Below, in pieces: positions 13,052 through 16,748 of a DNA stretch of 64,000 bases. Source of the stretch: Escherichia phage vB_EcoM_G2540-3; sequence record MK327944.1, one strand, 5' to 3'. Position numbers and translations under genes: made by a program. The notes under the pieces were generated by a model, which saw only the letters and a program-made list of their open reading frames with translations, was not told where the DNA came from and searched no databases. How positions within the stretch are numbered: the first letter of the stretch is position 1; each line of letters opens with the position of its first letter.

Positions 13052-13073
13052 AATATTTCCTCAGTATAAATAT

Positions 13074-13081
13074 AGATATAT
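13074..13081 (+). promoter_or_regulatory. TATAAATA late-promoter-like motif upstream of the GIY-YIG gene
   Basis: Exact TATAAATA 20 nt before ATG 13101. Confidence 0.4.
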
Positions 13082-13100
13082 TTATTACTCGGAAAATAGT

Positions 13101-13718
13101 ATGTACCACTTTGTATATGAAACAACAAATCTAATAAATGGTAAAAAGTATATAGGAAAACACTCTACTGATGACTTGAATGATGGTTACCTTGGTTCCG
13201 GTAAGGCAATTCAGCAGGCTATAAAGAAATATGGTGAAAACAATTTCTCTAGAACAATACTAAAAGAGTTTAAAACTTCCGAAGAAGCGTACATGTATGA
13301 AGAAGAAATTATAACTCCTGAAATAATAAAAAGCAAAAATTATTATAATATGAAACCTGGCGGAATTGGTGGAATTGTTATGACTACAGAGGTTATAGCA
13401 AAGATGAAAGAATCTTCCGCTAAGAGATTTGAAAACTCACCGGGCACGGTATTAGGTACAACTTGTTACACTAATGGAACTAAAAATATTTTTATTAAGC
13501 CTGGAGAACTTGTTCCAGAAGGATTTGTAAAAGGGATGGTTCATCCTAATAGAAAGTCCAGAAAAGGATGTAAAGTCAAACCGACTACCACAGGAACTTT
13601 TTGGGTCAATAATGGTGCAATAAATAAATTAATACAACCAGACGGTATTATTCCCGACGGATTTATTAAAGGTCGTCTCATGAAAAGAGATTCTAAAGGC
13701 AAATTTAGTAAGGCATAA
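13101..13718 (+). CDS. segE: GIY-YIG homing endonuclease (SegE-like)
   Basis: 205 aa; N-terminal YHFVYETTNLINGKKYIGKHS... GIY-YIG motif; sits between inh and uvsW. Confidence 0.8.
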   Translation: MYHFVYETTNLINGKKYIGKHSTDDLNDGYLGSGKAIQQAIKKYGENNFSRTILKEFKTSEEAYMYEEEIITPEIIKSKNYYNMKPGGIGGIVMTTEVIAKMKESSAKRFENSPGTVLGTTCYTNGTKNIFIKPGELVPEGFVKGMVHPNRKSRKGCKVKPTTTGTFWVNNGAINKLIQPDGIIPDGFIKGRLMKRDSKGKFSKA

Positions 13719-13720
13719 TT

Positions 13721-15229
13721 ATGGATATTAAAGTACATTTTCACGACTTCAGTCATGTACGCATCGATTGTGAAGAGAGCACGTTCCACGAATTAAGAGA
13801 TTTCTTTTCGTTTGAGGCCGATGGATATAGATTTAACCCTCGCTTCAGATATGGCAACTGGGATGGACGAATCCGTCTTTTAGATTATAATCGTCTTCTT
13901 CCGTTTGGCTTAGTCGGGCAAATTAAAAAGTTCTGTGATAACTTTGGCTATAAAGCCTGGATTGACCCGCAAATTAACGAAAAAGAAGAATTATCAAGAA
14001 AAGATTTTGATGAATGGCTTTCTAAATTAGAAATCTATTCAGGAAATAAAAGAATTGAACCGCACTGGTATCAAAAAGATGCAGTGTTCGAAGGATTAGT
14101 TAATCGTCGTAGAATTCTTAATCTTCCAACATCCGCAGGTAAATCTTTAATTCAAGCTTTGCTTGCACGTTATTATTTGGAAAATTATGAAGGTAAAATT
14201 CTTATCATTGTTCCAACAACTGCTCTGACAACTCAGATGGCTGATGACTTCGTCGACTATCGTTTATTCAGTCATGCAATGATAAAGAAAATTGGTGGCG
14301 GAGCATCAAAAGATGATAAATATAAAAATGATGCACCAGTCGTTGTTGGTACATGGCAAACTGTAGTTAAACAACCGAAAGAATGGTTCTCACAGTTTGG
14401 AATGATGATGAATGATGAATGTCATCTTGCTACAGGAAAAAGTATTTCATCTATCATATCAGGTTTAAATAACTGCATGTTCAAATTCGGTTTGTCTGGT
14501 TCATTACGTGATGGCAAAGCCAATATCATGCAGTATGTTGGAATGTTTGGTGAAATATTTAAGCCAGTAACGACTTCTAAATTAATGGAAGATGGACAAG
14601 TAACTGAGCTAAAAATTAATAGTATTTTTCTTCGCTATCCAGATGAGTTCACTACTAAATTAAAGGGAAAAACTTATCAAGAAGAAATAAAAATTATTAC
14701 TGGGCTCAGTAAAAGAAATAAATGGATCGCTAAATTAGCTATTAAGCTTGCGCAAAAAGATGAAAACGCTTTTGTCATGTTTAAACATGTATCACATGGT
14801 AAAGCTATTTTCGATTTAATTAAAAACGAATACGATAAAGTTTATTACGTATCAGGGGAAGTTGATACAGAAACCCGCAATATAATGAAAACCTTAGCTG
14901 AAAACGGTAAAGGAATAATTATAGTAGCTAGTTATGGTGTATTTTCTACTGGTATTTCAGTTAAAAATCTGCATCACGTTGTTTTAGCACACGGTGTTAA
15001 ATCAAAAATCATTGTATTACAAACAATCGGTCGTGTATTACGTAAGCATGGTTCTAAAACAATCGCAACAGTCTGGGACCTCATAGATGACGCGGGTGTA
15101 GTTTCTAAATCAAAAACATCTTCTAAAAAATACTCGCATTTAAACTATCTTTTAAAACATGGACTTGATCGTATTCAGCGTTATGCTGATGAAAAGTTTA
15201 ATTATGTGATGAAAGAGGTTAAACTTTGA
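13721..15229 (+). CDS. uvsW: UvsW DNA/RNA helicase (SF2)
   Basis: 502 aa; Walker A LPTSAGKS, DEAH-box-like MMNDECH, C-terminal helicase motifs. Confidence 0.95.
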   Translation: MDIKVHFHDFSHVRIDCEESTFHELRDFFSFEADGYRFNPRFRYGNWDGRIRLLDYNRLLPFGLVGQIKKFCDNFGYKAWIDPQINEKEELSRKDFDEWLSKLEIYSGNKRIEPHWYQKDAVFEGLVNRRRILNLPTSAGKSLIQALLARYYLENYEGKILIIVPTTALTTQMADDFVDYRLFSHAMIKKIGGGASKDDKYKNDAPVVVGTWQTVVKQPKEWFSQFGMMMNDECHLATGKSISSIISGLNNCMFKFGLSGSLRDGKANIMQYVGMFGEIFKPVTTSKLMEDGQVTELKINSIFLRYPDEFTTKLKGKTYQEEIKIITGLSKRNKWIAKLAIKLAQKDENAFVMFKHVSHGKAIFDLIKNEYDKVYYVSGEVDTETRNIMKTLAENGKGIIIVASYGVFSTGISVKNLHHVVLAHGVKSKIIVLQTIGRVLRKHGSKTIATVWDLIDDAGVVSKSKTSSKKYSHLNYLLKHGLDRIQRYADEKFNYVMKEVKL

Positions 15230-15918
15230 ATTATAAATTAATATATGATAATTTAATTAATAGAGCCCAAAATCGGGCTCGCCTTAATGGATACACTGAA
15301 ACACATCATATAATTCCTAGATGTATGGGTGGTACAAATGATAAGTGTAATTTAGTAGAACTAACGGCTGAAGAACATTTTATAGCCCATAAACTTTTAG
15401 CTAAAATTCATCCAAACCATTACGGTATAATTAAAGCTGTTATATGTATGGGGATGAATTCAAATACTCATGAAAGACACGTTAATAAATCTTACGCATG
15501 GGAACGTCGTAAAATGGCAGAACTTCAATCCGGCGAAGGTAATCCATTTTACGGAAAACACCATACGGAAGAACATAAACAATATATGTCAAAACTCATG
15601 AAAAGTCGTCCAATTACATGGGGAAATAAAATTAGTAAAACTAAAAGAATGAACCCAACGAAATGGACTGAAGAAGCTAAAAGATTACATTCAATCAATC
15701 AATCGGGTAAAAATAACGGCATGTATGGAAGGAAACATTCCGCTAAATCTATTCAGAAAATTAAAGATAACATGCCAGATAATTCAGGAGCTAATAACCC
15801 AGCTGCTAAACCTATAGAAGTAAATGGTGTTAAGTATAAATGTATGAAAGATGCTTCTAAAGCTACTGGATTATCAATGTACAAACTAAGAATACTTAGA
15901 AAAACAGTTAATTTATAA
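15226..15918 (+). CDS. HNH homing endonuclease-like protein (MobE paralog) inserted between uvsW and uvsW.1
   Basis: 230 aa; MNYKLIYDNLINRAQ...ETHHIIPRCMGGTNDKCNLVELTAEEHFIAH parallels the mobE-like ORF at 42097-42831; NUMOD3-like GKHHTEEHK repeats; TTG start overlapping uvsW stop. Confidence 0.8.
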   Translation: MNYKLIYDNLINRAQNRARLNGYTETHHIIPRCMGGTNDKCNLVELTAEEHFIAHKLLAKIHPNHYGIIKAVICMGMNSNTHERHVNKSYAWERRKMAELQSGEGNPFYGKHHTEEHKQYMSKLMKSRPITWGNKISKTKRMNPTKWTEEAKRLHSINQSGKNNGMYGRKHSAKSIQKIKDNMPDNSGANNPAAKPIEVNGVKYKCMKDASKATGLSMYKLRILRKTVNL

Positions 15919-15930
15919 GGGCTTCGGCCC
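15919..15930 (+). terminator. hairpin GGGCUUCGGCCC after the HNH gene
   Basis: GC stem with UUCG loop followed by ttt. Confidence 0.45.
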
Positions 15931-15943
15931 TTTGGAGAAAAAG

Positions 15944-16174
15944 ATGTTACTAAAATTTAAACAATTTCTTTATGAAGCTTCTATTGATGAATTTATGGGT
16001 AAAATTGCCTCTTGTCAAACATTAGAAGGTTTAGAAGAACTTGAAGCTTATTATAAGAAAAGAGTCAAAGAAACTGAATTAAAAGATACTGATGACATCT
16101 CTGTGAGAGATGCTTTGGCAGGAAAAAGAGCTGAATTAGAAGATTCAGACGATGAAGTAGAAGAAAGCTTTTAA
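15944..16174 (+). CDS. uvsW.1: UvsW.1
   Basis: 76 aa from ATG 15944: MLLKFKQFLYEASIDEFMGKIASCQTLEGLEELEAYYKKRVKETELKD... Confidence 0.85.
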   Translation: MLLKFKQFLYEASIDEFMGKIASCQTLEGLEELEAYYKKRVKETELKDTDDISVRDALAGKRAELEDSDDEVEESF

Positions 16175-16229
16175 ATTAAAAAAGGCCCAACCAAAAAGGA
16201 AGGGCCAAAACTATAGACTAAAGGTCACA

Positions 16230-16397
16230 CTATAGCAAAAGTTGTGTTTCATTTAATTGTTCTTCCGAACTTTCTGAAACTGGTAGTTCTTTAATGTAAT
16301 TATAGCAAGGCCCAGGATGTACAGGACCTTTGTCTGTTTCAACAACCAATGCAGAATCAATTGGAGTTTTACAGACAACACAAATCTTATCTGACAT
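16230..16397 (-). CDS. small CxxC protein (uvsY.-2-like), below the 60-aa track cutoff
   Basis: 55 codons, MSDKICVVCKTPIDSALVVETDKGPVHPGPCYNY...; AGGAGA Shine-Dalgarno 6 nt upstream; late-promoter motif at 16413-16420. Confidence 0.5.
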   Translation of the reverse strand: MSDKICVVCKTPIDSALVVETDKGPVHPGPCYNYIKELPVSESSEEQLNETQLLL

Positions 16398-16520
16398 GAT
16401 TGTCTCCTCTGAATTATATATCTATTTATAACCCCATCTTAAAACGCATTTCTTGTACACGCTTTAAACATGCTTCCATTTTTGCTAAAAGTCTAAATAC
16501 TTCTTTATAATTTGTCATAT

Positions 16521-16748
16521 TTACCCCATATCTCTCATATGCATATTAATGCCCATATCTTTAGAATAAAAATATTCATCAAGATATCCGGCAAATTTTC
16601 CTTTAATATAAAGGACATCTTCACCACACGGGTGGTCGGCCAGGATACGAATATCCTGACGCTTGAGATTATACTTTTTCATTAAGAATTGAATTTCCGT
16701 TTCAAATTCTTCTTCATAATTAAAAGCATCATCAATGCTATATCTCAC
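16521..16748 (-). CDS. hypothetical protein (uvsY.-1-like)
   Basis: 75-aa ORF immediately downstream of uvsY, stop/start overlap. Confidence 0.65.
   Translation of the reverse strand: MRYSIDDAFNYEEEFETEIQFLMKKYNLKRQDIRILADHPCGEDVLYIKGKFAGYLDEYFYSKDMGINMHMRDMG

Follow-up and report, generated by a model that had tools for sequence, protein, structure and literature searches.

The junction between the helicase gene uvsW and uvsW.1 in T6-type phages carries a gene that quite probably encodes an intact and active free-standing homing endonuclease specific to this junction. We analyzed it in a stretch of 64,000 nucleotides (nt) from Escherichia phage vB_EcoM_G2540-3 (sequence record MK327944.1), referred to here as the window. 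The window is that of a T6-like Tequatrovirus (14700-16400 is 99.2% identical to phage T6), and on its plus strand segE is followed by uvsW, by the open reading frame (ORF) in question and by uvsW.1 (Table 1). As predicted earlier from the window alone, the ORF comprises 230 codons at 15226-15918 and begins with a TTG that overlaps the uvsW stop. Judging from its sequence, the gene would be transcribed late and translated weakly. Public records already list it, under the name 'homing endonuclease' for T6, ACG-C40 and others and under 'mobD' for Yersinia phage PST, but it is uncharacterized; it belongs to a well-known class.

The uvsW-site protein is related to MobE

BLASTP aligned the N-terminal part of the protein with the product of the mobE-like gene of the window at 47% identity over 134 amino acids (aa; E 9e-34). 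Both proteins matched PHROG 655 'homing endonuclease' (E 4e-60 for the uvsW-site protein and 6e-57 for the mobE-like protein), and the uvsW-site protein also matched PHROG 12434 'HNH endonuclease' (E 7e-10). In an alignment of 44 homologs, H28, N42, H51 and H55 were invariant and H27 was at least 90% conserved; all five align with the same residues in the mobE-like protein. The HNH region that the original prediction had seen in both genes is thus borne out by pairwise alignment, with the HNH residues in place. The AlphaFold model (predicted local distance difference test score 88.8) contained strands at residues 25-28 and 43-46 and a helix at 48-61, as expected for a beta-beta-alpha core. When the whole model, which is elongated, was used for fold searches, the results were noisy and the HNH matches weak.

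The predicted NUMOD3-like repeats were recovered as two stretches matching Pfam NUMOD3 (PF07460; E 7.6e-14, 51.8 bits against a cut-off of 20.4). The C-terminal 60 residues matched the DNA-binding domain of I-TevI (structure 1i3j; E 0.006), which Foldseek also returned with a probability of 1.0 and a template modeling score of 0.53 on the target; the Pfam match to I-TevI_DNA-bd (PF20987) had 14.7 bits, under the cut-off of 27. These similarities point to a Mob-type (HNH) free-standing homing endonuclease with a predicted beta-beta-alpha-metal head, a linker with two NUMOD3 repeats and an I-TevI-like helix-turn-helix tail, an assignment that we consider likely jointly with active homing. Such a modular 'beads on a string' design has been described for phage homing endonucleases (PMC2988022). 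The further proposal that the two HNH genes of the window provide dispersed homology for recombination was not upheld: their longest exact match is 15 nt, with 68% nucleotide identity over the first 195 nt.

The TTG start overlaps the uvsW stop

The TTG occupies 15226-15228 and the uvsW stop TGA 15227-15229, so that two bases belong to both (cTTTGAatt). The TTG had been named as the only available start, and indeed the next in-frame start is an ATG at codon 34, use of which would cut off the HNH His-His. From the TTG onward the N-terminus (MNY..IY) aligns residue for residue with MobE. Orthologs start in the same 4-nt xTGA overlap, with ATG in PSE-D1 and Rgz1, GTG in PM2 and TTG in UPEC01 and DK-13. 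Because the N-terminus aligns with MobE and orthologs have ATG or GTG at the same position, sequence comparison identifies TTG 15226 as the true start. The 46-nt junction was 100% identical in 38 of the 48 T6-type records. In EC121, the one single-mismatch record examined, the change lies outside the TTG, at 15246 (TAT to TAC), and is synonymous. All five alleles examined were intact and had the TTG.

Several public records (such as FL08, ESh36, BF15 and the JGI copy) annotate the protein as 197 aa from the ATG at codon 34, or as 195 aa, and the catalytic His-His is therefore lost from these versions. If only the 197-aa product were made, or none, the TTG would be unused and the gene a catalytically dead remnant. 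Apart from these submitters' annotations, the weakness of TTG as a start could be cited for such a view. It is nevertheless hardly credible, given that codons 1-33 are conserved with MobE and all orthologs, including the invariant H28 and the near-invariant H27, that ATG or GTG occupies the same position in other genera, that a GAGG stands correctly spaced 5' of the TTG and that the sole substitution in codons 1-33 of the EC121 allele is silent. Note that the UPEC01 ortholog is annotated from an internal ATG as 'group I intron endonuclease', and that another ortholog is labelled 'GIY-YIG'.

The insert replaces and reuses the end of uvsW

The gene had been predicted to lie between uvsW and uvsW.1. 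It is found at this junction, but not simply between the two genes: the insert, of 689 nt, is inside the last five codons of ancestral uvsW. T4-type uvsW ends with ATG AAA ACA GTT AAT TTA TAA (MKTVNL-stop), whereas uvsW of the window ends with ATG AAA GAG GTT AAA CTT TGA (MKEVKL-stop), and this replacement tail supplies both the GAGG and the TTG. The T4-type end, AAAACAGTTAATTTATAA, recurs at the end of the endonuclease ORF, where it supplies the final five codons and the stop (...LRKTVNL-stop); after it come the T4 hairpin, which is unchanged, GGAG and the uvsW.1 ATG. Since the stretch 3' of the insert is unchanged from T4, the translation start region of uvsW.1 is untouched. The cassette thus leaves both neighbors intact, with a five-codon tail and stop for uvsW, read-out of the endonuclease through the recipient uvsW tail and an untouched uvsW.1 start.

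Other lineages have a similar design, in which a near-perfect direct repeat of the resident uvsW tail flanks the gene. In UPEC01 and DK-13, uvsW ends IKQVEI-stop, the endonuclease starts with TTG and its tail reads LIKQVEI-stop; the corresponding elements in PM2 are IKEVKL-stop, GTG and MLKEVKL-stop. In PSE-D1 and Roth04 a uvsW tail MKTVNL-stop is followed by ATG and an endonuclease tail QLRNL-stop, with ATGA overlaps on both sides, and in Rgz1 the series is IREIKL-stop, ATG and KLLKG-stop. Among the orthologs the conserved protein stops at about GLSxYKLRxL, and the sequence beyond varies with the host junction. In T6-type phages the tail on the left, KEVKL, is foreign and matches that of PM2, and the one on the right is native. 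From the sequence, we infer that this combination is the expected trace of transfer between lineages, with the right joint inside the tail repeat. The junction anatomy has apparently not been described before.

A divergent patch of uvsW is linked to the gene

Identity of the window to T4 was ~98% up to 15083, fell to 33/60 at 15084-15143 and 53/60 at 15144-15203, and was 99-100% directly to the right of the insert. The divergent patch of ~135 nt in uvsW (15094-15229) was linked to the gene in 48/48 records. It consists of two parts, sub-patches A and B (Table 1). Sub-patch A recodes the UvsW loop VKPKSANTKKKYV to VVSKSKTSSKKYS; the loop VKPKSANTKKKYV is conserved in at least five other genera, endonuclease-positive ones included. 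Besides all 48 endonuclease-positive records, four endonuclease-less mosaics (LH2 and OES_C-1/2/3) carry sub-patch A and are T4-type from 15142 onward. Within sub-patch B, all changes 5' of codon 498 are synonymous but for L/I at a GL/ID position (T6 has I). Sub-patch B with the replacement tail GAG GTT AAA CTT TGA was found only together with the endonuclease gene.

A comparable left-flank tract is seen in Jiaodavirus, where the gene-positive Roth04 and PSE-D1 differ from the gene-less Roth79 in the last ~140 nt of uvsW and are identical to it on the right side. From -900 to -140, carriers were no closer to each other than to T4 (15-25 versus 10-20 differences), and the gene and its patch therefore behave as a discrete cassette on mixed backgrounds. 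For MobE, SegF and SegG it has been published that the sequence separating the gene from a distant cleavage site is co-converted (PMC2790892; PMC2988022), and the gene-linked left-flank tract at uvsW resembles this pattern.

Sub-patch A is a candidate for either a recoded target site or an imported donor tract. A search for the donor of the patch found the VVSKSKTSS loop in no phage record beyond the 48 carriers and four mosaics, the next best match being T4-type (81%), and no endonuclease clusters at 70%-90% identity were found. A comparison of Gaprivervirus with and without the gene was uninformative on the patch, the 'empty' VR5 and FB being Dhakavirus (~76% identity). The stretch 15094-15136 could be the sequence that the enzyme itself cleaves, altered in carriers such that they are immune; the four gene-less carriers would then be 'vaccinated' and the cassette would be compact and self-insulating. 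The extreme non-synonymous divergence of sub-patch A fits this idea, which we regard as possible but doubtful. As a universal target or immunity site, sub-patch A was rejected: gene-positive Jiaodavirus and Gaprivervirus are T4-type there, and one gene-less Jiaodavirus has a variant. Given the lack of a consistent cross-genus association, the recoded target is kept only as a possibility specific to T6-type phages.

The gene is sporadic, at one junction, in several genera

In T4 the gene is absent from the junction and, as the original prediction had stated, uvsW.1 directly follows: the uvsW stop is succeeded by a 25-nt spacer with the GGGCTTCGGCCC hairpin and then by uvsW.1. Note that in the T4 reference NC_000866 (3670-3700 of the stretch compared) an old sequence error fuses uvsW and uvsW.1 into a 587-aa ORF, while newer T4 assemblies (OZ209023) have two ORFs. 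At the level of Tequatrovirus, 48 records (~10%), including some GenBank/RefSeq duplicates, had the gene with 96.7-99.7% nucleotide identity, and ~432 had an empty site. The junction survey thus disposed of the possibility that all relatives carry the gene, which is absent from T4 and ~90% of close relatives.

A full-length ortholog (E <= 1e-40) was present in 74 of 50,697 phage records: 48 T6-type, 14 at 60-80% identity and 12 below 60%. By annotation, 59 of the 60 ortholog matches listed adjoin uvsW. The orthologs belong to at least six named groups (Tequatrovirus, Jiaodavirus, Gaprivervirus, Gualtarvirus, Bragavirus and a Citrobacter phage), and carriers include Jiaodavirus PSE-D1 and Klebsiella Roth phages, Gaprivervirus UPEC01, DK-13 and TH40, SP18, Morganella Rgz1 (Gualtarvirus) and Proteus PM2 (Bragavirus). 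The BF15 copy is frameshifted. The survey was based mainly on the GenBank phage collection; a scan of IMG/VR with UvsW.1 gave 14 loci. A list of T4 homing endonucleases from 2010 has no entry at uvsW/uvsW.1 (PMC2988022).

As a separate observation, Proteus phage PM2 contains a 291-aa ORF (63-938 of the stretch compared), with a NUMOD3-like GVNNGMYG motif, that interrupts uvsW and leaves two 'DNA helicase' ORFs. As the HNH gene is present at uvsW/uvsW.1 as well, this one helicase gene has two insertions.

Expression and the 5' hairpin

A late transcript covering segE, uvsW, the endonuclease gene and uvsW.1 would start from the motif TATAAATA at 13065, the endonuclease gene itself lacking a promoter. 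From 13065 to 16174 the plus strand contained no further exact late motif. The terminator hairpin after uvsW.1, the conservation of which has been described (PMC1524935), is the likely end of the operon. Two TATAAAT sequences (7/8 of the late consensus, plus strand) lie just after the endonuclease start (15232-15238) and ~100 nt before uvsW.1 (15835-15841). They were discounted as probable chance matches, as they are not conserved in orthologs and such matches are expected in AT-rich DNA.

Ribosomes ending uvsW would re-initiate at a low level at the TTG in the TTGA overlap, aided by the GAGG 7 nt upstream. Stop/start coupling has been proposed for the nrdA/mobE overlap (PMC2988022), and by analogy weak, coupled translation of the endonuclease from the TTG is plausible; the non-ATG starts in 3/5 lineages are consistent with low expression. 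In a predicted RNA fold at 15196-15240, the GAGG region is base-paired with the CUUU at the TTG start, as part of a longer AU-rich stem (z -2.7, 15196-15300). Such pairing could make the start region inaccessible, an effect reported for Aeh1 mobE; this is uncertain, the pairing being weak and AU-rich.

The hairpin at 15263-15280 is the most stable 30-nt fold in the whole 32%-GC ORF (z -3.5). PSE-D1, UPEC01, PM2, Rgz1 and the mobE-like paralog have hairpins of different sequence at the same place (ORF nt ~32-57), and in all five lineages and the paralog no other local fold of the ORF ranks above the 5' hairpin, although the encoded peptide is variable there. The T4 mobE hairpin at the corresponding position, 27 nt past the AUG, is a demonstrated weak terminator with 30-50% termination (PMC2790892). 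Like this counterpart, the hairpin 37 nt into the uvsW-site ORF probably lowers expression further. Folding profiles of 78 metagenomic Mob-like genes had a modest peak at nt 34-63 and another at 82-111; the hairpin is therefore claimed only for the uvsW-site lineages and mobE.

Probable active homing and its alternatives

When a carrier phage infects a cell together with a gene-less relative, for example T4, its enzyme would nick or cut the relative's uvsW/uvsW.1 region, where the gene is missing. Repair by recombination with the carrier genome would then copy the gene together with ~135 nt of the donor uvsW 3' end. The gene is under purifying selection, with 20 synonymous and 5 non-synonymous differences among alleles and a ratio of non-synonymous to synonymous substitution rates (dN/dS) of ~0.06. 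Several points weigh against the overall reading of an active, late-transcribed and weakly translated homing endonuclease. The Pfam HNH match (PF01844) reached 16.2 bits, under the gathering cut-off of 21.4. No cleavage site could be assigned, and in other genera gene-positive genomes are T4-type at sub-patch A. The 5' hairpin has no following U-tract and so may not terminate transcription. A literature search found no paper or experiment characterizing the uvsW-site enzyme. Moreover, ordinary T-even recombination without active homing could also yield the distribution.

A formerly mobile gene, now inactive or domesticated and maintained by vertical inheritance and general recombination without current homing, would account for the one fixed site and fixed flank haplotype in 48/48 records and for the decayed copy in BF15. 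T-even genomes are highly mosaic anyway, and gene-less mosaics such as LH2 are evidence of ordinary recombination within the patch. We nevertheless judge this history unlikely, because the low dN/dS extends across the whole ORF, catalytic residues included, the same gene occupies the same junction in at least six genera while being patchy within each, and the co-conversion-like tract on the left flank occurs in two genera. Strong purifying selection would also suit a nuclease kept mainly for phage benefit, be it the exclusion of co-infecting relatives' markers or recombination and amplification near uvsW, with homing secondary. The presence of two endonuclease genes flanking uvsW in the window agrees with this, and in a 2026 article T6 SegB is reported to promote immune evasion through the amplification of loci (PMC13096335). 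However, support specific to the gene is lacking and ~90% of Tequatroviruses manage without it, which makes such a primary role very unlikely, and phage benefit is in any case compatible with homing. An active homing endonuclease is thus the reading that we favor.

Comparison with known systems

The closest known system is T4 MobE, a free-standing HNH enzyme that is encoded between nrdA and nrdB and has been proven to nick DNA and to act in homing (Wilson and Edgell 2009, PMC2790892). The two share a homologous N-terminal HNH domain (the 47% identity above refers to the window's own mobE-like copy), the PHROG family, a start codon that overlaps with the end of a DNA-metabolism gene upstream, at its stop, with no own promoter apparent, a GC-rich hairpin ~30 nt into the ORF and patchy occurrence among T-evens. 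They differ in site (uvsW/uvsW.1 versus nrdB) and presumably also in target. MobE has NUMOD1, whereas the uvsW-site protein has two NUMOD3 and the I-TevI-like helix-turn-helix; MobE starts with ATG rather than TTG. In contrast to mobE, the uvsW-site hairpin is without a poly(U) tract and the ORF ends inside a retained copy of the host-gene tail.

I-TevI, of T4 td, is similar in its C-terminal part, where the NUMOD3-like element and helix-turn-helix match its DNA-binding domain (1I3J), but it is an intron-encoded GIY-YIG enzyme, whereas the uvsW-site gene is free-standing and HNH. The phage HNH nicking endonucleases, such as I-HmuI (1U3E) and the GVE2 HNH protein (5H0O), are intron-encoded or terminase-associated, and their similarity to the uvsW-site protein is below a direct match. 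T4 SegE, encoded between inh and uvsW and a neighbor in the window, also uses uvsW as homing landmark; it belongs to an unrelated nuclease family and sits at the opposite end of uvsW.

Features of the locus and its surroundings

The coordinates of the locus are collected in Table 1.

Table 1. Features of the uvsW locus and of the mobE-like paralog in the window (+, strand presented; -, complementary strand)
Feature	Position	Strand	Evidence or remark
T4-type late promoter motif TATAAATA	13065..13072	+	Upstream of segE; exact match
segE, GIY-YIG homing endonuclease gene	13101..13718	+	Pfam SegE_GIY-YIG, E 3e-9; same position in T4 annotation
uvsW, helicase gene, 502 aa	13721..15229	+	Ends MKEVKL-stop versus T4-type MKTVNL-stop
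Sub-patch A in uvsW	15094..15136	+	24/43 nt differ from T4
Sub-patch B in uvsW	15142..15229	+	17/88 nt differ from T4; includes replacement uvsW tail
Shine-Dalgarno-like GAGG	15215..15218	+	7 nt 5' of TTG; within replacement uvsW tail
Homing endonuclease ORF, 230 aa	15226..15918	+	TTG start; TTGA overlap with uvsW stop
GC-rich hairpin GAGCCC-AAAATC-GGGCTC	15263..15280	+	37 nt after start codon
HNH core, aa 23-55: YTETHHIIPRCMGGTNDKCNLVELTAEEHFIAH	15292..15390	+	Alignment and structure model
NUMOD3 repeat 1, GEGNPFYGKHHTEEHKQYMSKLMK	15532..15603	+	Pfam
NUMOD3 repeat 2, GKNNGMYGRKHSAKSIQKIKDNM	15706..15774	+	Pfam
C-terminal I-TevI-like DNA-binding (helix-turn-helix) module	15805..15897	+	PDB 1i3j match, Foldseek; Pfam sub-threshold
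AAAACAGTTAATTTATAA, T4-type uvsW last five codons and stop (KTVNL-stop)	15901..15918	+	Read as endonuclease C-terminus; right insert boundary
Native GGGCTTCGGCCC hairpin, then GGAG and uvsW.1 ATG	15919..15930	+	Unchanged versus T4
uvsW.1, 76 aa	15944..16174	+	Pfam UvsW-1, E 1.7e-30
Bidirectional terminator hairpin GGCCC...GGGCC	16184..16206	.	After uvsW.1; sequence
mobE-like paralog, 244 aa	42097..42831	-	Between nrdA and nrdB; ATG overlaps nrdA ORF end by one base; 9-bp 5' hairpin

Two homing endonuclease genes that are unrelated to each other flank uvsW in the window, segE upstream and the HNH gene at the uvsW 3' end. A review of T4 homing endonucleases gives uvsW as the SegE target (PMC2988022). 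The co-conversion tracts of segE and the HNH gene could overlap across the 1.5-kb essential uvsW. Beyond the locus, an extra segment lies between uvsY.-1 and uvsY.-2 (16428-16520, minus strand, within a ~97-nt stretch at 16404-16523), which is absent from T4 and T6; of 470 matching phage records, 74 had it. A 30-aa ORF in this segment, MTNYKEVFRLLAKMEACLKRVQEMRFKMGL, has its ATG 3 nt past the uvsY.-1 stop, and an exact late-promoter motif is present at 16423-16430 (minus strand).

Implications

With this gene, the classic T-even catalog of homing endonuclease sites, which was compiled for T4, where the gene is absent, gains a sixteenth kind. The wider significance is modest because the gene is already annotated and its class is well studied. 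In practical terms, the correct start is the TTG, and several public records give a shortened protein without the catalytic His-His. T6-type phages have a foreign tract at the 3' end of uvsW, the naive phylogenetic use of which should be avoided.

If sub-patch A were indeed a rewritten cleavage site, LH2 and OES_C-1/2/3 would be genomes in which resistance spread without the nuclease. The replacement tail, the read-out via the recipient tail and the family-wide 5' hairpin would complete the self-insulating mobile unit, and the direct uvsW-tail repeats would guide homing and permit clean excision. The locus is a clean natural example of how a gene enters the end of an essential gene harmlessly, bringing a substitute tail, a ribosome-binding site and a start codon, while the host's original uvsW tail is borrowed as the C-terminus of the endonuclease.

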